Virus record (IMG/VR): IMGVR_UViG_3300029113_000198 | Origin: a virus | Strand: one strand, 5' to 3' | Length of the DNA stretch: 64,000 bases | Notes under the pieces: model-generated | Seen by the model: only the letters and a program-made list of their open reading frames with translations | What the model was told of the DNA's origin: nothing | Database searches by the model: none | Part shown: positions 6,633 to 59,533 of the stretch, in pieces | Layout of the letters: each line of letters opens with the position of its first letter | Numbering within the stretch: position 1 is the stretch's first letter | Position numbers and translations under genes: made by a program

Positions 6633-7385
6633 ATGACAAGAAATGAATTGCTTGGAGCGTTATGCTTTCCAGAATATAATTTTCTTCGGGAGAATGAGCA
6701 TCTTGGCAAACACATGATGTTTGTGACGGTCGGTGGCAGTCATGCTTACGGGACAAATGTTGAGGGCTCAGATCTTGACATCCGAGGTGTAGCATTGAAT
6801 TCAAAAGAAGACCTTCTTGGTCTCGGTGAGTTTGAGCATTATGTGGACACTCAGACCGATACAACGATTTATAGCTTTAACAAAGCTGTGAAATTGATGT
6901 GCAGTGGAAATCCCAATATGCTGGAACAGTTAGGGAATGCCGATGAACTCGTTATTAGCTATAACCCAATGACGCAGCTACTTATGGACAACAAAAACCT
7001 ATTCCTTTCAAAGCGTGTGATTTACTCGTTTGGAGGTTTTGCAGGCAAGCTGATTCAGAAGTCTGATATATTAGACAAAGATCCAATCTACCATAATTCA
7101 AAGAAAATGCACAAGACGGTAATGAATGCAGTTCGTGTATACCTGATGCTCTTTGACATCTTGGAAAAAGGTGAAATTAAAACCTATCGAGACAACGATC
7201 ATAACCTCCTGACGCAGCTTCGCAACGGTGAATATGATTACAAAGCGATTCGTCAGCAACTGATTCCGGCCTATGAAAGCAGATTGTCAGTTGACAAGAG
7301 TGAGACTTACCTGTCGGACAATGTTGATTGGAAGCTGGTCAACGAGCTTGTGATGACTGTAAATGAGGAGTCTTTAAAGATTTGA
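6633..7385 (+). CDS. Pol-beta superfamily nucleotidyltransferase (PF10127 / RlaP / YcgL-like)
   Basis: VGGSHAYGTNVEGSDLDIRGV = hG[GS]...[DE]h[DE]h NTase motif in the GSxxYG...SDxDxRGV form typical of the ~250 aa predicted-nucleotidyltransferase family. Confidence 0.55.
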   Translation: MTRNELLGALCFPEYNFLRENEHLGKHMMFVTVGGSHAYGTNVEGSDLDIRGVALNSKEDLLGLGEFEHYVDTQTDTTIYSFNKAVKLMCSGNPNMLEQLGNADELVISYNPMTQLLMDNKNLFLSKRVIYSFGGFAGKLIQKSDILDKDPIYHNSKKMHKTVMNAVRVYLMLFDILEKGEIKTYRDNDHNLLTQLRNGEYDYKAIRQQLIPAYESRLSVDKSETYLSDNVDWKLVNELVMTVNEESLKI

Positions 7386-8578: not shown

Positions 8579-8998
8579 ATGGACAACAATATTGACCCAA
8601 AGGTCGGAGAGGTTTGGTTGGTCGATTTGTCAAATGCGACAGGTCATCAGCAGCGCGGTATTCGACCGTTCGTTGTGACGAGCAACAATAAGCGCAACTT
8701 CTTTAGCCCCACAATCAAAGGGAATCCATTGTCTTCCAGAATATACAAGCGTTCTCCGGTTCATGTTCTACTTTCAAAGGAAGACTGTAATTTCTTAGAG
8801 GTTGACAGTATCGTTCTTTGTGAAGAGACTGACACGCTTAACAAAGGACAGTTCATCAAAAAACTTGGTGTCTTGTCGGAACGTCAGATGAATATGATTG
8901 CAATGGCAAGATGTAAGGATGAACCGTTTTTGCTCGCAGCATTCCTGAGCGGCGTACAACATACTATGGAATTTCAGAATTTTGCCGCATTTGCTTGA
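8579..8998 (+). CDS. mazF: MazF/PemK/EndoA-family endoribonuclease toxin
   Basis: VGEVWLVDLSNATGHQQRGIRPFVVTSNNKRNFFSPTI aligns with B. subtilis EndoA ([29 protein letters not shown]...RFSPT); downstream HV..L and QMNMI blocks also conserved. Confidence 0.8.
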   Translation: MDNNIDPKVGEVWLVDLSNATGHQQRGIRPFVVTSNNKRNFFSPTIKGNPLSSRIYKRSPVHVLLSKEDCNFLEVDSIVLCEETDTLNKGQFIKKLGVLSERQMNMIAMARCKDEPFLLAAFLSGVQHTMEFQNFAAFA

Positions 8999-12597: not shown

Positions 12598-12727
12598 CGA
12601 AAACGCCCTGCGTGGGGCTGACAGCCGGGAAAGACCGGCGATATATGCCAAGGTGCTGCAAATGGGAGACAGGGCGAGCCCAAACCTCGCTGTGGAAACA
12701 CATGCGGTTTCGAATACCGTCCTTGGC
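12598..12727 (+). ncRNA. Candidate structured RNA element (GC-rich, nested and pseudoknot-like helices) upstream of the HNH gene
   Basis: ~130 nt at ~58% GC inside a 40% GC phage. Mutually complementary segments: CGAAAACGC(12598-12606)/GCGGTTTCG(12704-12712), GCCGG-gaaaga-CCGGC (12624-12639), GCCAAGG(12647-53)/CCTTGGC(12721-27), GCGAG-cccaaac-CTCGC (12674-90). No plausible ORF. Confidence 0.3.
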
Positions 12728-12759
12728 ACCAGATAATTTTATGAAGAAAGGATGATTGC

Positions 12760-13443
12760 ATGGTTAATAGGGCAGAAGATCATATTGGTGATGTCTTTGA
12801 TTTGTTTGAGGTGATTGATGTTATTCGAGATGAAAATAATATTCCATCTTACAAATGTCGATGTAAAGAATGTGGATGGACAGGGCTAAAAAATATAGCT
12901 CAGGCGAGAGCGGTTAAAGTGTGTCGGCATAAACAATCGAGTGGCGATTATAGAAATTTTTCTACACGGTGGAAAAACAAAAGAATCGGACGAATCTTTC
13001 ATGGAATGAAAGCAAGATGCTATGATGTTGATGATAAAAACTATATAACGTATGGCATGAAAGGAATTTGTGTTTATCAAGAATGGTTGGATAATCCAAA
13101 GTCATTTGAAGAGTGGTCGTTGAAAAATGGATACAAAGATAGTTTGACAATCGATAGAATTGATTCGACAAAAGATTACTGTCCTGATAATTGCAGATGG
13201 ATATCATTGGAAGATAATTCAAAATATAAATCCACAACTCGAATGTTAGAAGTAGATGGTGAAATACATACGGGACGTGATTGGGCGGCAGAATTAGGGC
13301 TTGGAACAAACACGATAAATAAATATGTAAGAAGATACGGAGAAGATAATACAAAACAATTTATAAGAAGAGTATTAAAGGACCCGGATAAAGTGAATTC
13401 TCGACAAGGGAAACAAACTATCTATAATCTTTACATGAACTAA
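12760..13443 (+). CDS. HNH homing endonuclease (free-standing, phage type)
   Basis: GMKARCYDVDDKNYITYGMKGICVYQEWLDNPKSFEEWSLKNGYKDSLTIDRIDSTKDYCPDNCRWISLEDNS is the classic HNH_3 block; Cys-rich N-terminus. Confidence 0.8.
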   Translation: MVNRAEDHIGDVFDLFEVIDVIRDENNIPSYKCRCKECGWTGLKNIAQARAVKVCRHKQSSGDYRNFSTRWKNKRIGRIFHGMKARCYDVDDKNYITYGMKGICVYQEWLDNPKSFEEWSLKNGYKDSLTIDRIDSTKDYCPDNCRWISLEDNSKYKSTTRMLEVDGEIHTGRDWAAELGLGTNTINKYVRRYGEDNTKQFIRRVLKDPDKVNSRQGKQTIYNLYMN

Positions 13444-13450
13444 ATTGAAA

Positions 13451-13490
13451 TGGCCCAGTGTAAAAACTGAGTACATTGGGCCAAATATTT
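13451..13490 (+). terminator. Rho-independent terminator after HNH gene
   Basis: TGGCCCAGTGTA-aaaactgag-TACATTGGGCCA (12-bp stem, one G-U) followed by AATATTTAT. Confidence 0.65.
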
Positions 13491-13496
13491 ATATGA

Positions 13497-13580
13497 GCAC
13501 CCGTGGTGAAATTGGCAACCACGATGGACTTAAAATCCATTCCCGGTAACGGGTTGCGAGTCCGAGTCTCGCCGGGTGCA
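13497..13580 (+). tRNA. tRNA-Leu (anticodon UAA), type II
   Basis: Manual cloverleaf: acceptor GCACCCG/CGGGTGC, anticodon arm ATGGA-CTTAAAA-TCCAT, variable arm CCCG-GTAA-CGGG, T arm GCGAG-TCCGAGT-CTCGC, discriminator A. Confidence 0.7.
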
Positions 13581-13585
13581 TATTT

Positions 13586-13661
13586 CTGGGCGTAGCGAAG
13601 TTGGCATCGCACCTGTTTTGGGAACAGGGGACCGCAAGTTCAAATCTTGTCGCTCAGACCA
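13586..13661 (+). tRNA. tRNA-Pro (anticodon UGG) with encoded CCA
   Basis: Acceptor CTGGGCG/CGCTCAG (C1:G72 as in bacterial tRNA-Pro), D arm GCGA-AGTTGGCA-TCGC, anticodon arm CCTGT-TTTGGGA-ACAGG, T loop TTCAAAT, then A-CCA. Confidence 0.7.
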
Positions 13662-13664
13662 CTA

Positions 13665-13751
13665 CGAGGATTCGCCAAGTTGGTAAGGCAGCGGAATTTG
13701 ACTCCGCCAGCGCTGAACAAGCGGTCACAGGTTCGAGTCCTGTATCCTCGG
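13665..13751 (+). tRNA. Unusual type-II tRNA: Ser-like body (long variable arm, G discriminator) with anticodon UUG
   Basis: Acceptor CGAGGAT/ATCCTCG perfect; D stem GCC/GGC (3 bp); anticodon arm GCGGA-ATTTGAC-TCCGC; 19-nt variable arm CAGCGCTGAACAAGCGGTC; T arm ACAGG-TTCGAGT-CCTGT; discriminator G. Confidence 0.5.
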
Positions 13752-13758
13752 CTTATAT

Positions 13759-13843
13759 GCGGGTATGGTGTAACTGGCAGCCACGTCAGATTTAGGATCT
13801 GATGCCGAAAGGCGTGAGGGATCGTGCCCCTCTACCCGTACCA
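13759..13843 (+). tRNA. tRNA-Leu (anticodon UAG), type II, with encoded CCA
   Basis: Acceptor GCGGGTA/TACCCGT (G1-U72), anticodon arm TCAGA-TTTAGGA-TCTGA, variable arm GCC-gaaa-GGC, T arm GAGGG-ATCGTGC-CCCTC (atypical T loop), A-CCA. Confidence 0.55.
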
Positions 13844-13942
13844 CGGTCATAGAATGGTTGCGTACCGTTTGTTGATCTCCTTTACTATTATTCCCAGCTC
13901 GCCAGTGATGGTGCAGTAGTGCTTTGTAAGCTGGGTGATTGT

Positions 13943-14018
13943 GCAGCTATGGTGTTAGTGGTTAGCACATCTGCCTTCCAAGCAGAGAGGGCGGGTTCGA
14001 GTCCCGTTGGTTGCTCCA
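13943..14018 (+). tRNA. tRNA-Gly (anticodon UCC) with encoded CCA
   Basis: Acceptor GCAGCTA/TGGTTGC (two G-U pairs), anticodon arm TCTGC-CTTCCAA-GCAGA, T arm GCGGG-TTCGAGT-CCCGT, T-CCA. Confidence 0.6.
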
Positions 14019-14207
14019 ATCTCGTATGGGTAGGATTTTTAGCGGTCAAATCCGGCTGCGCCTGTGCGAGATACCACCCCGAAAGGGGCGAGATATAGGA
14101 AATGTGCATCACTGTTATTCCTTCCTCGTCTATATGATATAGATGCAATAGTGTTTTATAAGGAAGGTGCCCAGTTGAATAGTTGCAGCTGTTTAACTGG
14201 TTTTTAT

Positions 14208-14284
14208 GGGATAGTAGCTCAGTTGGTCAGAGCTGGCGACTCATAACCGCTTGGTCGCGAGTTCAAATCTTGCCTGTCCCACCA
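14208..14284 (+). tRNA. tRNA with CAU anticodon (Met, or Ile2/lysidine type), encoded CCA
   Basis: GGGATAGTAGCTCAGTTGGTCAGAGC...GGCGACTCATAACCGCTTGGTCGCGAGTTCAAATCTTGCCTGTCCCACCA; anticodon-to-T-arm segment closely resembles E. coli ileX (GGCGACTCATAATCGCTTGGTCGC). Confidence 0.7.
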
Positions 14285-52878: not shown

Positions 52879-54036
52879 ATGGAAAGAAGAAAAGACAATA
52901 AAGGACGTGTTTTGAAAGAGGGTGAGTCGCAACGTAAAGATGGTCTGTACCAGTATCGTTGGACAGATAAGTTTGGAAAGCGCCGCACTATTTATTCTGG
53001 CGACTTGAAAGAATTAAGAGCAAGGATTGAAAGTTTAACAGAATCTGAAATACAAGGCATCGACCCAATAGCAAACTCAATGACGGTGAAAGAGCTTGTA
53101 AAAAAATATTCCAATCTTCATAAGCCGTCTTTAAAGGAGACAACAACAAAGAACATAGACACTTTCATGAAAATCCTTTCTGGGTGTACTTTTGCCAATA
53201 AAACAATCGCATCAATAACACCGACAGAAGCAAAAGTGTTCATGAAAGAACTATATGATAAGGGGTACTGTTATGGCACAATAAATAACTATAAAGGAAT
53301 ACTACGACCGGCTTTTGAGCTTGCCTGCGATGATAAAATTTTGTCAAGGAATCCTTTTAGCTTTCAACTTTCAAAAGTTGTGCCAAAAGAAAACAAGACA
53401 AAAACTATTCTGTCGAATGAACAATTTTCAAGCCTTGTTGATTTCTGCAAAAAGGATATCTATCTCAGTCAGCACGTTGATGAACTTATAATCTTATATG
53501 AGACCGGACTTCGTGTTAGTGAGTTTTGTGGATTAACCGTAAGTGATATTGATTTAGAGCAGGGAATTGTAAATGTGAACCACCAGCTTGTATATCTTCA
53601 TGGAGAGTTCTCAATCCAATCTCCAAAAACAAAAAGTGGTGTACGCATCATACCAATGTCGCAAAAAGCCAGAGAAGCATTTTCACACATTATAAGTACA
53701 AGACCACAGCTGGATGAAGAGCCGAGCGTAAGTGGATATAGCGGCTTTCTACAAGTCAGTTACAAAAACAGCCCTCGTTCAGCGGTTAGTGTTGAATCAA
53801 ATGTGCGACAAGCTATACAGAGGTACAACAAGGTCAATCCACAAGGGCAACTGCCAACTGCAATCACACCTCATACTTTAAGGCATATGTTCTGTACCAG
53901 AATGGTAGAGTCTGGGATGAACATTAAAGCCGTCCAGTATGTGATGGGACACAGTAAAGTCAATATGACATTAGATGTTTATAGCCATGTGGATGCCGAA
54001 AAAGCAGTTGCGGAGTTCCGAAAGATGGTTCAGTAA
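52879..54036 (+). CDS. int: Tyrosine integrase, Tn916/Tn1545 Int family
   Basis: N-terminus MERRKDNKGRVLKEGESQRKDGLYQYRW mirrors Tn916 Int; C-terminal HTLRHMF...MGHSKVNMTLDVYSH catalytic box. Confidence 0.8.
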   Translation: MERRKDNKGRVLKEGESQRKDGLYQYRWTDKFGKRRTIYSGDLKELRARIESLTESEIQGIDPIANSMTVKELVKKYSNLHKPSLKETTTKNIDTFMKILSGCTFANKTIASITPTEAKVFMKELYDKGYCYGTINNYKGILRPAFELACDDKILSRNPFSFQLSKVVPKENKTKTILSNEQFSSLVDFCKKDIYLSQHVDELIILYETGLRVSEFCGLTVSDIDLEQGIVNVNHQLVYLHGEFSIQSPKTKSGVRIIPMSQKAREAFSHIISTRPQLDEEPSVSGYSGFLQVSYKNSPRSAVSVESNVRQAIQRYNKVNPQGQLPTAITPHTLRHMFCTRMVESGMNIKAVQYVMGHSKVNMTLDVYSHVDAEKAVAEFRKMVQ

Positions 54037-54125: not shown

Positions 54126-54480
54126 GGTATGACATAATATAACAGAATATGAACTAGACGAGCGTGCAATAAATAGCAGTAGAAAAGCAAGAAGAGGAAA
54201 AATAACGAATTATCGTTATGAATACAAAAGCGAACAATAACTCAAGCAAAAATATGTGCAAAGTGTAAAAATTACAAAAAAATTACAATACCCTATTGCA
54301 AAACGGTTTCAAAAGAGTTACAATATGGTTACAGCAAGGGCAAAGCCCCAAGGCTGTGTGTGAAATCTTTTTCTTCTTGTTTTTGGGATACTGGGCGCGG
54401 ATCCTCCTCCTCCGGCTGTTCTCCTTCACAGCTATGATCCATGCGCCGCACAGGCAGTGTCCCGCTTCGTGTGCAAAAGG

Positions 54481-54510
54481 GCTCGTCCGGTGATTCGGAC
54501 GAGCTTTTTT
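54481..54510. terminator. Strong hairpin + T-run (bidirectional-type terminator)
   Basis: aaaagGGCTCGTCCG-gtgatt-CGGACGAGCtttttt. Confidence 0.65.
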
Positions 54511-54915: not shown

Positions 54916-56436
54916 TTGATTATGGCTTATTTCTACGAAGAACCCTCCCGCACCTTTGGCGAGTATCTGCTGGTCCCCGGCTATTCCTCTGCGGAGAATG
55001 TGCCTACGGCGGTCAGCCTGAAGACCCCGCTGGTCAAGTACCGCAAGGGGCAGGAGGAGTGCCCGCTGCAGATGAATATCCCCATGATCAGCGCCATCAT
55101 GCAGTCGGTCTCCGGCGATAAGCTGGCCATTGCACTGGCTCGTCAGGGCGGCGTTTCCTTTATCTATGGCTCTCAGAGCATCGAGAACGAGGCCGCTATG
55201 GTGCGCCGCGTCAAGAGCTTCAAGGCCGGCTATGTGGTGTCCGATTCCAATCTGGCTCCCACTGCCACCCTGCATGACGTGCTGGAACTGAAGGCACGCA
55301 CCGGTCACTCCACCATTGCCATCACTGCCGACGGTACTCCCAATGGCAAGCTGCTGGGCATCGTGGCTTCCCGCGATTACCGCGTCAACCACACCCCGGA
55401 CGATGCCTGCGTCACCACCTTTATGACCCCCATTGAAAAGCTGGTCACTGCTCCGGCCAACACCTCCCTGCACGACTGCAACAACATCATCTGGGACAAC
55501 AAGATCAACACCCTGCCGCTGGTGGATGCCGAGGGCAATCTGGTGTATATGGTGTTCCGCAAGGACTACGACTCCCACAAGGCAAACGTCAACGAGTTGC
55601 TGGATAAGAACAAGAGCTACGTTGTGGGTGCCGGCATCAACACCCGCGACTACGCTCAGCGCGTGCCCGCACTGGTAGAGGCCGGTGTGGATGTGCTGTG
55701 CATCGACTCCTCCGAGGGCTACTCCGAGTGGCAGAGCCGCACCATCGGCTGGATCCGCGAGCACTACGGCGACACTGTCAAGGTGGGTGCCGGCAACGTG
55801 GTGGACGCCGAGGGCTTCCGCTTCCTCGCTGAGGCTGGTGCAGACTTTGTGAAGATCGGCATCGGCGGCGGCTCCATCTGCATTACCCGTGAGACCAAGG
55901 GCATCGGCCGCGGTCAGGCTACCGCTGTCATCGAGGTTGCCAAGGCTCGTGACGAGTACTACAAGGAGACCGGCATCTATGTGCCCATCTGCTCCGACGG
56001 CGGCATCGTCCATGACTACCACATCACCCTCGCGCTGGCTATGGGCGCAGACTTTGTGATGCTGGGCCGCTACTTTGCCCGCTTTGACGAGAGCCCCACG
56101 AACAAGGTGCGCATCAACGGCCAGTATATGAAGGAGTACTGGGGCGAAGGTTCCAACCGTGCCCGCAACTGGCAGCGCTACGATCTGGGCGGCTCCACCA
56201 AGCTGAGCTTTGAGGAGGGCGTGGACAGCTATGTGCCCTACGCAGGCCCTCTGGCGGACGGCGTGCAGACCACCTTGTATAAGGTCAAGAGCACCATGTG
56301 CAACTGCGGCGCTCTGTCCATCCCCGAACTGCAGCAGAAGGCCAAGCTGACCGTTGTTTCCTCCACCTCCATCGTGGAGGGCGGCAGCCACGACGTTGTG
56401 CTGAAGAACGCCACCCCCAGCATTATGAACGGCTGA
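54916..56436 (+). CDS. guaB: IMP dehydrogenase family protein (GuaB-like, with CBS pair)
   Basis: Catalytic loop [26 protein letters not shown]-pair insert (~100-220); ~62% GC. Confidence 0.75.
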
Positions 56437-56649: not shown

Positions 56650-58167
56650 ATGAACGAGATCAAGGTTGAGCCTTATATCCCCGATGAGGACTACGATAAC
56701 CCCGCGATGGTGGTGGATTTTTACGAATTTACCATGGCAAACTGCCTGTTCCTGCATGGTTTTAAGGATACCACGCTGGTGTTTGATATGTTCTTCCGCA
56801 AGAACCCGGACAATCAGGGCTATTCCATCAGCGCAGGCCAGCGCAAGCTGACCCGCTTTTTGCTGGACTATCACTTTAATGAGCAGGATATCCACTGGCT
56901 GCGCACCAAGGGCATGAGCGAGGAGTTCTGCGAGTATCTGCGCACCTACAAGTGGAAGGGCGATATGTACGCCCTGCCCGAGGGCACGGTCTGCTACCCC
57001 CATGTGCAGATGGTGCGCATCGAGTGCGATCTGGTGGGCGCGATCCTCATCGAGACCTACCTGCTGCAGACCATGAATTTCCATAGCCTGATCGCCACCA
57101 AGGCCACCCGCGTCACCGGCCTGAACACCCACACCCCCCGCAACGTCATGGAATTCGGCACCCGCCGCGCACAGGGCGAGAGCGCCGGTAACGATGGCGC
57201 TTACGCCGCAGTGCTGGGTGGCTGCATCGGTACGGCCAACTGTCTGGCAGAGATGAAGTTCGGTGCAGAGGTCAAGGCCGTGGGCACTGTGGCACACAGC
57301 TTTATCGAGTTTTTCCCCACCGAGTTCGATGCCTTCAAGGCCTTTGCCGATACCTACCCGGATTCGGTCAGCCTGCTGCTGGATACCTATAATATTATGG
57401 AAAGCGGCCTGCCCAACCTGATCAAGCTGGACGATTATCTCATTGAGAAATACCCCAATGACCCCAATCGCCGTGTCAAGAGCGCCCGCATCGATTCCGG
57501 CGACCTTGCCCGCGGCTCCAAGCGGCTGCGTAAGGCTCTGGATGCCGCAGGCAAGCCCTACATCAAGCTGGTGGCCTCCAACGGTCTGGATGAGAAGAAA
57601 ATCGCCAACATGGAACTGTACGAGCACGCACACTTCGACTCCTACGGCGTGGGCGAAAACCTCATCACCTCTGCCTCCGACCCTGTGTTCGGCGGCGTGT
57701 ACAAGCTGGTGGCGGTGAAGAAGCCGGACGGCAGCTATACCCCCAAGATGAAGTGCTCGGACTCCGCCAGCAAGGCCATCATCCCGGGCAAAAAGATGCC
57801 GTGGCGTCTGTACGACGAAAACGGTCAGGCACAGTGCGACCTGATTGCCATGGACGGCGAGGTCATCGAGGCCGGTAAGCCGGTCACCATGGTCAATCTG
57901 GACTCGGACGCCATCGAACGCACCATCACCTTTATCCCCACCGCTGTGCGCCCGCTGTTGGTGCCGCATATTCTGGGCGGCGAGCTGGCCATTGAACTGC
58001 CCTCTATTGCAGAAAAGAAGGCCTATATTGCAAAGCAGCTCACCGAGGAGACATGGGAGAGCGAGTTGCGTCTGGAATGCCCCCACAAACACTACGTCAA
58101 CATGACCCCCGCAGTGGCCGAGTGCCGCTCCCGGATGTACGCCGAGCTGCACGGAGGCAAGGTGTAA
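56650..58167 (+). CDS. pncB: Nicotinate phosphoribosyltransferase
   Basis: VVDFYEFTMANCLF, EFGTRRAQGESAGN, RIDSGDLA blocks typical of NAPRTase; 505 aa. Confidence 0.7.
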   Translation: MNEIKVEPYIPDEDYDNPAMVVDFYEFTMANCLFLHGFKDTTLVFDMFFRKNPDNQGYSISAGQRKLTRFLLDYHFNEQDIHWLRTKGMSEEFCEYLRTYKWKGDMYALPEGTVCYPHVQMVRIECDLVGAILIETYLLQTMNFHSLIATKATRVTGLNTHTPRNVMEFGTRRAQGESAGNDGAYAAVLGGCIGTANCLAEMKFGAEVKAVGTVAHSFIEFFPTEFDAFKAFADTYPDSVSLLLDTYNIMESGLPNLIKLDDYLIEKYPNDPNRRVKSARIDSGDLARGSKRLRKALDAAGKPYIKLVASNGLDEKKIANMELYEHAHFDSYGVGENLITSASDPVFGGVYKLVAVKKPDGSYTPKMKCSDSASKAIIPGKKMPWRLYDENGQAQCDLIAMDGEVIEAGKPVTMVNLDSDAIERTITFIPTAVRPLLVPHILGGELAIELPSIAEKKAYIAKQLTEETWESELRLECPHKHYVNMTPAVAECRSRMYAELHGGKV

Positions 58168-58359: not shown

Positions 58360-58443
58360 GCCGCTGTGGTGAAATTGGCAGACACGAGGGACTTAAAATC
58401 CCTTTCTGGAGACAGAGTACGGGTTCGACCCCCGTCGGCGGCA
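58360..58443 (+). tRNA. Chromosomal tRNA-Leu (anticodon UAA), type II; probable integration target of the downstream element
   Basis: Acceptor GCCGCTG/CGGCGGC, anticodon arm AGGGA-CTTAAAA-TCCCT, variable arm TCTG-gaga-CAGA, T arm ACGGG-TTCGACC-CCCGT, discriminator A. Confidence 0.7.
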
Positions 58444-58564
58444 TGTAGAAGCTCAGAATTGTTCGTTGATTCGAATGATTCTGGGCTTTTTCTTTTCGTT
58501 CCATTTTCTGGAAGTGTTAAGCGGGCGAGAGGGATTTTTCGCGAAAAAAGGAGGAGTCTCTCTC

Positions 58565-59533
58565 GTGCGTAACCGTGATTTAAGACCCGCTGCCAAGGCA
58601 AACCCCACCATCCAACAGGCCTTTGAAAGGTTCCAAAAGTACAACCGGCTCAAGAACCTCTCCCAAGGCTCGCTCGACTTCTACGCTGCAAAGGGCAGAA
58701 GCTTCTTTCGGTTTCTGGGGGATACAGAGCAGCCCATTCATACCATCACAGAGGAAACGGTGGAGGATTATATCTTCTATATGAAGGACCAGCAGCTCCA
58801 CGATACGACCATCAATACGAACCTCCGTATGGTGCGTGCGTTTTTGTACTGGTGCATGGAAAAGGGCTATCTGGAAAAGTATCCTATCAGACTGGTGCGT
58901 GCCGATGATCCGATCAAGGAACCCTATGCCACCAACGAGCTGCAGAAGCTGCTGAAGGAACCAGACTGCAAGACCTGCTCCTTTGCCGAATACCGCAACT
59001 GGGTCATTGTCAACTTCCTGCTTGGTACCGGCTGCCGTGCGTCTACGCTGCTCAACCTGCAGATCGGAGACTTGAATCTTTCCGCCGGGACAGTGTTTTT
59101 CCGCCACATGAAGGCGCGTAATCAGCAAATCGTACCGCTCTCTAAGGCACTGGTCAAGATCATGGAGGAGTATCTGGAGCATCGTACCAGTGACCCTACA
59201 GCCCCGTTGTTTGTCTCGGAGTATGGCAACCAGATGACCCTGAATTCGCTCGGGAATGCGATTTGGAATTATAATCATAGCAGAGGCGTGGAGAAGACCT
59301 CTATGCACCTGTTCCGGCACACCTACGCCAAATTGTATATCCAAGCTGGCGGCGACCCGTTCCGCCTGCAAAAGCTGCTGGGACACGCAGACCTTACCAT
59401 GACCCGGCGGTATGTGGCACTGTATGCGGACGACCTGAGAGCCAACTACGACGCCCTGAATCCCCTAGAACAGCTGACCCGCAAAAATCGCCATGGAGAT
59501 AAGATCAAGATGGGGAAGGGGGAGGGAAAGTAA
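58565..59533 (+). CDS. Tyrosine integrase (phage/ICE type), GTG start
   Basis: GTGCRASTLLNLQIGDL (Arg box), HLFRHTYA, LLGHADLTMTRRYV; AAGGAGG 9 nt upstream of GTG 58565. Confidence 0.75.
   Translation: MRNRDLRPAAKANPTIQQAFERFQKYNRLKNLSQGSLDFYAAKGRSFFRFLGDTEQPIHTITEETVEDYIFYMKDQQLHDTTINTNLRMVRAFLYWCMEKGYLEKYPIRLVRADDPIKEPYATNELQKLLKEPDCKTCSFAEYRNWVIVNFLLGTGCRASTLLNLQIGDLNLSAGTVFFRHMKARNQQIVPLSKALVKIMEEYLEHRTSDPTAPLFVSEYGNQMTLNSLGNAIWNYNHSRGVEKTSMHLFRHTYAKLYIQAGGDPFRLQKLLGHADLTMTRRYVALYADDLRANYDALNPLEQLTRKNRHGDKIKMGKGEGK

Follow-up and report, generated by a model that had tools for sequence, protein, structure and literature searches.

The gene at positions 13665-13751 of the analyzed DNA (64,000 nt of the IMG/VR virus record IMGVR_UViG_3300029113_000198, hereafter called the window) is probably a functional prophage tRNA-Gln(UUG), a reader of CAA derived from a class I tRNA-Gln through the gain of a hairpin in the variable loop. 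The CAA codon is most likely read as glutamine rather than recoded to serine. The long-variable-arm tRNAs of bacteria are classically those for Leu, Ser, Tyr and Sec, and the combination of a long arm, G73 and a UUG anticodon, pointed out in the original prediction, is indeed present and unusual. The elements of the gene are as follows:

13665-13751, + strand, long-variable-arm tRNA-Gln(UUG), 87 nt up to the discriminator (ARAGORN, Rfam tRNA, family model R1)
13665-13671, + strand, acceptor 5' strand CGAGGAU, paired with 13744-13750 (C1-G72, G2-C71, A3-U70)
13672-13690, + strand, U8, C9, D arm GCC-AAGUUGGUAA-GGC of the Gln type, and A26
13691-13707, + strand, anticodon arm GCGGA-AUUUGAC-UCCGC (covariance-model register)
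13698-13700, + strand, anticodon UUG (ARAGORN and Rfam), reader of CAA, and of CAG via wobble
13708-13726, + strand, 19-nt variable region CAG-CGCU-GAACA-AGCG-GUC (ARAGORN, RNAfold, class I alignment)
13727-13743, + strand, T arm ACAGG-UUCGAGU-CCUGU (Rfam alignment)
13744-13751, + strand, acceptor 3' strand AUCCUCG and G73 (13751)

ARAGORN located the tRNA, with the anticodon ttg, at 13665-13752, and the family model R1 gave 87.6 bits on 13665-13751. The latter interval was matched end-to-end by the Rfam tRNA model RF00005 (gathering score of 29) with 51.7 bits (E=1.1e-9 in a 2.2-kb scan and E=3.3e-8 in the whole window) and without flagged non-standard pairs, while the five neighbouring tRNAs also matched by this model scored 42.6-61.5 bits, a range enclosing the score of the window gene. 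The cloverleaf consists of an acceptor stem of 7 bp and the D, anticodon and T arms, and the anticodon loop, 7 nt in size, contains U33 and, at position 37, a purine. Its D arm comprises a 3-bp stem (GCC/GGC), G10, A13.A22 and G15, and is devoid of 20a/20b. In the register of the covariance model, the loop reads A32-U33-U34-U35-G36-A37-C38, which places a Gln anticodon (U34-U35-G36) in the canonical position. The earlier description of an intact tRNA with a 7-nt loop and a UUG anticodon is therefore borne out: all four cloverleaf stems are perfect, the Rfam score is on a par with those of the neighbours, and both ARAGORN and the Rfam covariance model uphold the loop and the anticodon. The two flanking tRNA-Leu genes have A73, also as described. 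No alternative register yields a Ser (NGA or GCU), Leu or Tyr anticodon in the covariance model, UUG being found in the only register. The proposed likeness to frameshift suppressors fails, as the loop is of 7 nt and the enlargement to at least 8 nt is lacking. Two further candidates were rejected, i.e., a stop-codon suppressor (the anticodon is UUG, not CUA, UUA or UCA) and an intron (the insertion is only 15 nt long and located in the variable loop).

Where class I tRNA-Gln has a short variable loop of 4-5 nt, the window gene has 19 nt with a hairpin, in which 13711-13714 pairs with 13720-13723 around the loop 13715-13719 (ARAGORN and RNAfold). In another drawing, the arm is a helix of 6 pairs (A-U, G.G and 4 bp) that leaves a single free base on each side, and in the subfamily of the window gene the arm has either 1+1 or 3+3 unpaired flanking bases, depending on the drawing. 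It folds only slightly better than shuffled sequences (z = -1.61, p = 0.076), its stem has only 4 bp, and CCA is not encoded by the gene (13752-13754 is CTT). Such features could be expected of a decaying or non-functional gene, that is, a tRNA-Gln disabled by the insertion and drifting or serving as a mere decoy. We consider this highly improbable: the four stems pair perfectly, the Rfam score lies near those of the neighbours, CCA is missing in the class I orthologues too, the gene is identical in one related contig (L012) and 98% identical in an unrelated one (L191), and the cloverleaf is preserved by compensatory changes across the family described below.

The window takes in the right-hand portion of a large prophage (~135 kb, 42% G+C) residing in a Faecalibacterium-like chromosome. 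From position 1 to ~54 kb, the genes lie on the + strand at ~42% G+C, and their products are replication and nucleotide-metabolism proteins of phage type, among them a DnaB-like helicase, RecJ, Pol III alpha, RecD2, DNA ligase, NrdD, ThyX and a cytosine methylase. Beyond the integrase that closes the prophage there are host genes with 50-58% G+C. The tRNA cluster and the prophage end are composed of the following features (the long-arm gene lies between Pro and Leu(UAG)):

12647-14284, + strand, prophage cluster of seven tRNAs (ARAGORN)
12647-12731, + strand, tRNA-Leu(CAA) (ARAGORN)
13497-13580, + strand, tRNA-Leu(UAA) (ARAGORN)
13586-13661, + strand, tRNA-Pro(UGG) (ARAGORN)
13759-13843, + strand, tRNA-Leu(UAG) (ARAGORN)
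13943-14018, + strand, tRNA-Gly(UCC) (ARAGORN)
14208-14284, + strand, tRNA-Met(CAU) (ARAGORN)
52879-54036, + strand, tyrosine integrase at the prophage end (Pfam Phage_integrase and Integrase_DNA)
54380-54487, IMPDH RNA motif at the prophage-host junction
54916-56436, host guaB, Faecalibacterium-like
56650-58167, host pncB, Faecalibacterium-like
58360-58443, host tRNA-Leu(UAA)
58466-59533, second integrase, directly after the host tRNA-Leu(UAA) and followed by a helicase

The pncB product falls into the same 90% identity cluster as that of Faecalibacterium prausnitzii SL3/3. In human-gut metagenome contigs, the integration site is empty in L180-L184 and occupied in L185. The second integrase and the helicase adjoin the host tRNA-Leu(UAA), which indicates another mobile element there, and in metagenome contigs of some strains other cargo is present at this spot. 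An origin of the long-arm gene as an attachment-site remnant was dismissed, as the tRNA cluster sits within the prophage interior.

Several other features of this region deserve mention. The Leu(CAA) gene called by ARAGORN has no Rfam tRNA match even at E<=1, and its counterparts in sister phages are 79 nt long with short variable regions; possibly this tRNA has diverged or is in decay. An HNH endonuclease gene (12760-13443) is placed inside the cluster between Leu(CAA) and Leu(UAA), and is probably a mobile insertion, because no close homologue was found in the sister-phage loci. A few kb upstream of the cluster, genes of an RlaP-family RNA-repair nucleotidyltransferase (6633-7385) and a MazF-like endoribonuclease (8579-8998) are encoded, and their products may have a bearing on conflict over tRNAs or mRNAs. 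A megablast search of the cluster against deposited phages returned 73 nt of the Gly tRNA as the sole match. In MT835544, a neighbouring gene is 90% identical, but tRNAs are absent within 12 kb of it.

The order of the cluster is common to the window and four IMG/VR contigs, i.e., L012 (contig 3300045988_123253, 135.7 kb), L151, L140 and L085. In L012, the whole tRNA cluster is identical to that of the window. In the three others (129-132 kb), arranged as Leu(CAA), Leu(UAA), Pro, Gln, Leu(UAG), [His], Gly and Met, the position of the window gene is occupied by a 72-nt class I tRNA-Gln(UUG), which has the same acceptor stem (CGAGGAU/AUCCUCG), the same anticodon loop (AAUUUGAC) and a 4-nt variable loop, and A73 whereas the window gene has G73. 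The bracketed His stands for an additional 74-nt tRNA of L140 (4206-4279) and L085 (3009-3082), absent in the window, for which the ARAGORN call was His with the anticodon AUG and an 8-bp acceptor stem. The replication proteins of L140 and L085 share mostly 95-99% amino-acid identity with those of the window. In the alignment with its orthologues (A1), the window gene is set apart by 15 nt inserted in the variable region and by a small number of substitutions, with the flanks conserved on both sides. The same position, acceptor stem and loop in the sister phages therefore indicate that the long arm is an addition to tRNA-Gln, and, judging from these sequence comparisons, the window gene appears to be a class I tRNA-Gln plus a hairpin and not a Ser tRNA with an altered anticodon. 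Thus, of the serine-type architecture originally proposed, the 19-nt arm and G73 stand, while the Ser origin does not, given the class I tRNA-Gln genes in the orthologous position; the idea of a Ser(UGA) loop displaced by one nucleotide likewise lacks support, given class I Gln orthologues with an identical loop. Conservation among related phages, suggested as a check, is partial: the gene is unchanged in L012, and L151, L140 and L085 hold the class I form.

Deposited sequences lend this origin independent support. When the tRNA was compared by blastn with 50,697 genomes of deposited phages, annotated tRNA-Gln genes were the best matches for the D and anticodon arms (87-90% identity), and tRNA-Gln genes of Vibrio phages aligned from end to end, the arm appearing as a gap. 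The stretch at positions 8-22 (UCGCCAAGUUGGUAA) matches the class I tRNA-Gln D arms of L174, L134 and L061 exactly, and is one inserted base apart from those of E. coli glnW and glnV. The 3' half shows 79.5% identity to the tRNA-Ser(GCU) of MT837328, a gut phage, and the T arm is identical in the two. The overall core identity in an unselected phage tRNA set gives no separation (0.76 for Gln and 0.77 for Ser(GCU)), and the case was therefore built on synteny and specific features; the class I set collected here was retrieved with a pattern sharing ~20 fixed bases with the target, which biases similarity rankings based on it.

With class I tRNA-Gln(UUG) of E. coli (glnU/glnW) and of T4-like and Vibrio phages, the window tRNA shares UUG with U33 and A37, G10, G73, the D arm UCGCCAAG(N)GGUAAGGCA, a variable region that starts with C44-A45 and ends with C48, and the orthologous slot in the tRNA cluster. 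It departs from them in the 19-nt variable region with a hairpin, in place of 4-5 nt, and in C1-G72, a strong pair unlike the weak 1-72 pair (usually U1-A72) typical of tRNA-Gln, although its class I orthologues have C1-G72 as well. With bacterial class II tRNA-Ser it has in common the long arm, G73, G2-C71 and C11-G24, but it lacks a Ser anticodon and G-C at 1-72, and its body is orthologous to tRNA-Gln.

These Ser-like features bring us to the possibility, fairly raised in the original prediction, of a missense or ambiguous tRNA, in which the arm, G73, G2-C71 and A3-U70 would make the molecule a SerRS substrate and Ser would be inserted at CAA/CAG, wholly or in competition with Gln. What marks a tRNA as Ser is mainly the variable arm, with a further contribution from G73 and the acceptor stem and none from the anticodon (PMC9976931). 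The subfamily of the window gene is the most Ser-like of the family, with an arm that can be drawn with the 1+1 flanks typical of tRNA-Ser, and with G2-C71, A3-U70, C11-G24 and G73, the last differing from A73 of the class I orthologues; the similarity of the 3' half to tRNA-Ser(GCU) points in the same direction. According to the same source, the identity elements of E. coli tRNA-Gln are G73, acceptor pairs including a weak 1-72 pair, G10-C25, U35 and G36 (PMC9976931). The window tRNA has G73, G2-C71, G10-C25, U35 and G36 of this list, which is that of E. coli and may not be that of the host, and, where E. coli has U1-A72 and G3-C70, it has C1-G72 and A3-U70, which its class I orthologues share.

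G73, taken originally as a mark of Ser, is the usual discriminator of tRNA-Gln, being present in 70 of 96 class I tRNA-Gln genes collected (73%) and in 27 of 35 long-arm ones (77%). The 1-72 pair is U-A in 63% of the long-arm and 55% of the class I Gln genes (with A-U, G.U and C-G as minorities), and G-C in 78% of the co-resident tRNA-Ser genes, so that the family is of the Gln type in this respect. The D-loop size is also alike in long-arm and class I tRNA-Gln. Most of the family arms retain C44-A45-R at the 5' side and G-N-N-C48 at the 3' side, and in most members 3 and 4 bases flanking the arm are unpaired, compared with 1 and 1 in tRNA-Ser; most arms give the impression of a hairpin inserted into a loop of the class I type. 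It should be stressed that in five large arrays of 20-25 tRNAs (L013, L030, L019, L015 and L042), the long-arm form is the sole Gln tRNA, and each of them carries a normal tRNA-Ser(UGA) too.

Codon usage was also considered. In the host guaB and pncB genes (GC3 of 0.80), CAA stands at 0/22, TTA, CTA and CCA do not occur, and GGA stands at 1/82. In the prophage, 147 of 470 Gln codons are CAA, and TTA, CTA, CCA and GGA are used as well; its tRNAs Leu(UAA, CAA, UAG), Pro(UGG), Gln(UUG) and Gly(UCC) are readers of the codons that the host avoids. Where CAA codons of the window were compared with close relatives, the aligned residue was Q in 30 of 33 cases; in distant homologues, Q was the commonest residue (52/151), with S outside the top six. 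The frequency of CAA in orthologous genes is 26/81 in the window and 22/79 in L140, a sister phage with the class I allele, and synonymous changes were seen in both directions. The use of CAA at conserved Gln positions, without avoidance, argues against the recoding of CAA to Ser that had been suggested. Together with the orthology of the body, the Gln-type 1-72 pair of the family, the longer unpaired flanks of most members and the arrays in which the long-arm form is the only Gln tRNA next to a normal tRNA-Ser, it makes charging by SerRS unlikely. Array occupancy and codon evidence fit a Gln decoder.

The window gene belongs to a long-arm tRNA-Gln family, which is recurrent in gut phages and apparently undescribed. 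A pattern that combined the Gln-type end of the D arm with an anticodon arm carrying UUG and an extended variable region matched 39 IMG/VR contigs, in 38 of which ARAGORN called an 84-95-nt tRNA-Gln(UUG), and 17 of 185,579 GTDB species genomes, in all 17 of which such a tRNA was called. The GTDB carriers are mostly gut Clostridia, and the matches lie mostly inside phage-like tRNA arrays. Long-arm forms are a minority, because the class I control pattern gave at least 120 matches. Widening the anticodon to YTR added a single locus, L186, and among the resulting 40 viral loci with this body and a long arm the anticodon is UUG in 39 and UUA in one. The latter (6817-6907 of L186, a 376-kb IMG/VR contig) is a long-arm tRNA of 91 nt that has the ochre-suppressor anticodon UUA as well as G1-C72 and G73, and may be a Ser-type suppressor of a huge phage. 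In a blastn search of deposited phage genomes, no long-arm tRNA-Gln was found; KP8-like Klebsiella phages, one record of which labels the gene tRNA-Ser, were rejected as carriers, as the KP8 gene is an ordinary 76-nt tRNA-Gln. Neither long-arm tRNA-Gln nor long-arm tRNA-Ile(UAU) of phages turned up in a search of the full-text literature.

When 36 sequences were aligned to the family model, 95% of pair cells held standard pairs, compared with 75% in shuffles, and compensatory changes were found in 7 of 7 acceptor pairs and in 3 T-stem pairs. This pair conservation, together with the compensatory changes, indicates that selection acts on the family members as tRNAs. The arm hairpins are unrelated in sequence, yet their folding beats that of shuffles (mean z = -1.57 for 30 distinct arms), and 4 of 4 pairs of the modelled arm stem covary; pairing is seen in only 72% of cells because the register varies between subfamilies. 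In the subfamily of the window gene, the core stem pairs GCU/AGC are invariant, hence no covariation is present there. The long-arm genes fall into ~14 clusters, between which class I relatives are interspersed. Several of these clusters are nearer to a class I tRNA-Gln among the matches listed (0.93-0.95 identity) than to any other long-arm cluster, which indicates that the hairpin was gained or lost many times. Moreover, in L191, an unrelated 66-kb contig with another tRNA arrangement, an allele 98% identical to that of the window is present. The window allele has evidently been exchanged between phages, and, given this near-identical copy, the long-arm form is maintained. The Gln arm was considered as a mimic of an anticodon loop and rejected: the arm loops are not conserved, and the CUUUGAU string occurs only in L010 and L033.

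It is also conceivable that the hairpin is a selected shield or tag on a normal Gln decoder, which would let it evade a tRNA-Gln nuclease or toxin of the host or of the phage, or allow a phage factor to distinguish it from the tRNA-Gln of the host. The notion that phage tRNAs evade tRNA nucleases is well established (PMC10264068, PMC11555353). The repeated gain or loss across ~14 clusters, the persistence of covarying hairpins with unrelated sequences, and the RlaP-like nucleotidyltransferase and MazF-like RNase encoded upstream of the cluster are in line with this proposal. On the other hand, no tRNA-Gln-specific nuclease was identified in this analysis, the arm stem is short and incompletely paired across the alignment, and close relatives thrive with the class I allele; neutral insertion fits equally well. 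We regard a selected shield or tag as possible but tentative.

Returning to the reading of a functional tRNA-Gln with an added hairpin, the following scenario may be proposed. An ancestral class I tRNA-Gln would have acquired a short hairpin in the middle of its variable loop. The prophage tRNA set would cover A-ending codons shunned by the host, with the window tRNA supplying the decoding of CAA. We infer that the tRNA would be charged with Gln by the host route, i.e., by GlnRS, or by a non-discriminating GluRS followed by GatCAB, in view of the retained anticodon, G10, D arm and G73 and of the class I nature of both enzymes. Class I synthetases bind tRNA with the variable loop facing the solvent, and an extra arm should therefore be tolerated, while long-arm tRNAs are already accepted by EF-Tu and the ribosome. 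The hairpin is most likely either an addition that is tolerated or a change of shape favoured by selection in the contest of phage and host over tRNAs, with a slight lean to selection because of the recurrent gain, the kept pairing and the exchange between phages.

A second, much larger long-arm family with a class I anticodon is that of phage tRNA-Ile(UAU), 90-96 nt in length (60 motif-bearing genes). Its motif gave at least 120 IMG/VR loci, and 60 among the matches listed were called tRNA-Ile(tat) by ARAGORN. Further loci are listed from L197 onward, and examples include:

2612-2704 of L003 (Vibrio phage Hades), long-arm tRNA-Ile(UAU)
304-395 of L011, long-arm tRNA-Ile(UAU)
179-270 of L126, long-arm tRNA-Ile(UAU)
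10145-10234 of L134, long-arm tRNA-Ile(UAU)
2356-2447 of L145, long-arm tRNA-Ile(UAU)
12085-12178 of L173, long-arm tRNA-Ile(UAU)

The arm stem of this family covaries and has a bulged G. Its 7-nt arm loop is conserved, being CAGAUUA in 44 of 60 and CAGAUAA in 13 of 60 genes, while the Gln arms differ; CAGAUAA is one base away from CUGAUAA, the anticodon loop of tRNA-Ile(GAU), and the Ile(UAU) arm may be a mimic of an anticodon loop. ARAGORN also indicated long variable regions in other class I isotypes, i.e., Gly(UCC) of 87 nt (L003 910-996, Vibrio phage Hades), Asn(GUU) of 83 nt (L146 4670-4752), Lys(UUU) of 83 nt (L081 1462-1544) and Arg(CCG) of 96 nt (L154 10067-10162), some of which may be prediction artefacts.

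Some known systems resemble the window tRNA in part. The nematode nev-tRNAs are class II molecules that bear Gly or Ile anticodons but receive Leu; they are eukaryotic, derived from tRNA-Leu and mistranslating. The combination of a class II shape with the anticodon of a class I family is shared, whereas the body of the window tRNA derives from the tRNA that matches its anticodon. According to Mukai et al. 2017, allo-tRNAs have 8/4 or 9/3 acceptor/T stems and Ser or Ala identity elements (PMC5389517). They resemble the window tRNA in the long arm, an anticodon outside the Leu/Ser/Tyr rule and an occurrence in bacteria and metagenomes, but the window tRNA has a 7/5 structure with a Gln body, so that its proposed assignment to the allo-tRNA kind is not sustained. 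Finally, engineered aptamer-tagged tRNAs, in which the variable arm of an allo-tRNA chassis carries a hairpin, are translationally active (PMC7590224). There too a hairpin was added at the variable region, but those are synthetic constructs on allo-tRNA, and the window gene is natural and built on tRNA-Gln.

With regard to both the Gln(UUG) and Ile(UAU) families, one may speculate, with considerable doubt, that phages repeatedly add a hairpin to class I tRNAs as a device, either a shape tag for escape from tRNA-targeting nucleases or toxins or, in the G73 subfamily of the window gene, a dual Ser/Gln identity at CAA. If true, this would be a new principle of viral tRNA re-engineering, and dual identity would mean programmed Ser/Gln ambiguity at CAA, a codon scarcely used by host genes. 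For annotation, conflicts between isotype models and anticodons are to be expected in such genes, and recoding should not be read from these alone.

The family found here is a natural and recurrent group of Gln tRNAs with a long arm, kept in many uncultivated phages and prophages, in which it fills the Gln slot of near-complete phage tRNA sets, and its members offer naturally occurring scaffolds to those who engineer tRNAs. By implication, a tRNA-Gln bearing an extra arm is accepted by the Gln charging route as well as by EF-Tu and the ribosome. The family also poses the question of what keeps SerRS off a long-arm tRNA with G73, and it may expose a new arena in which phages and hosts contend over tRNAs.
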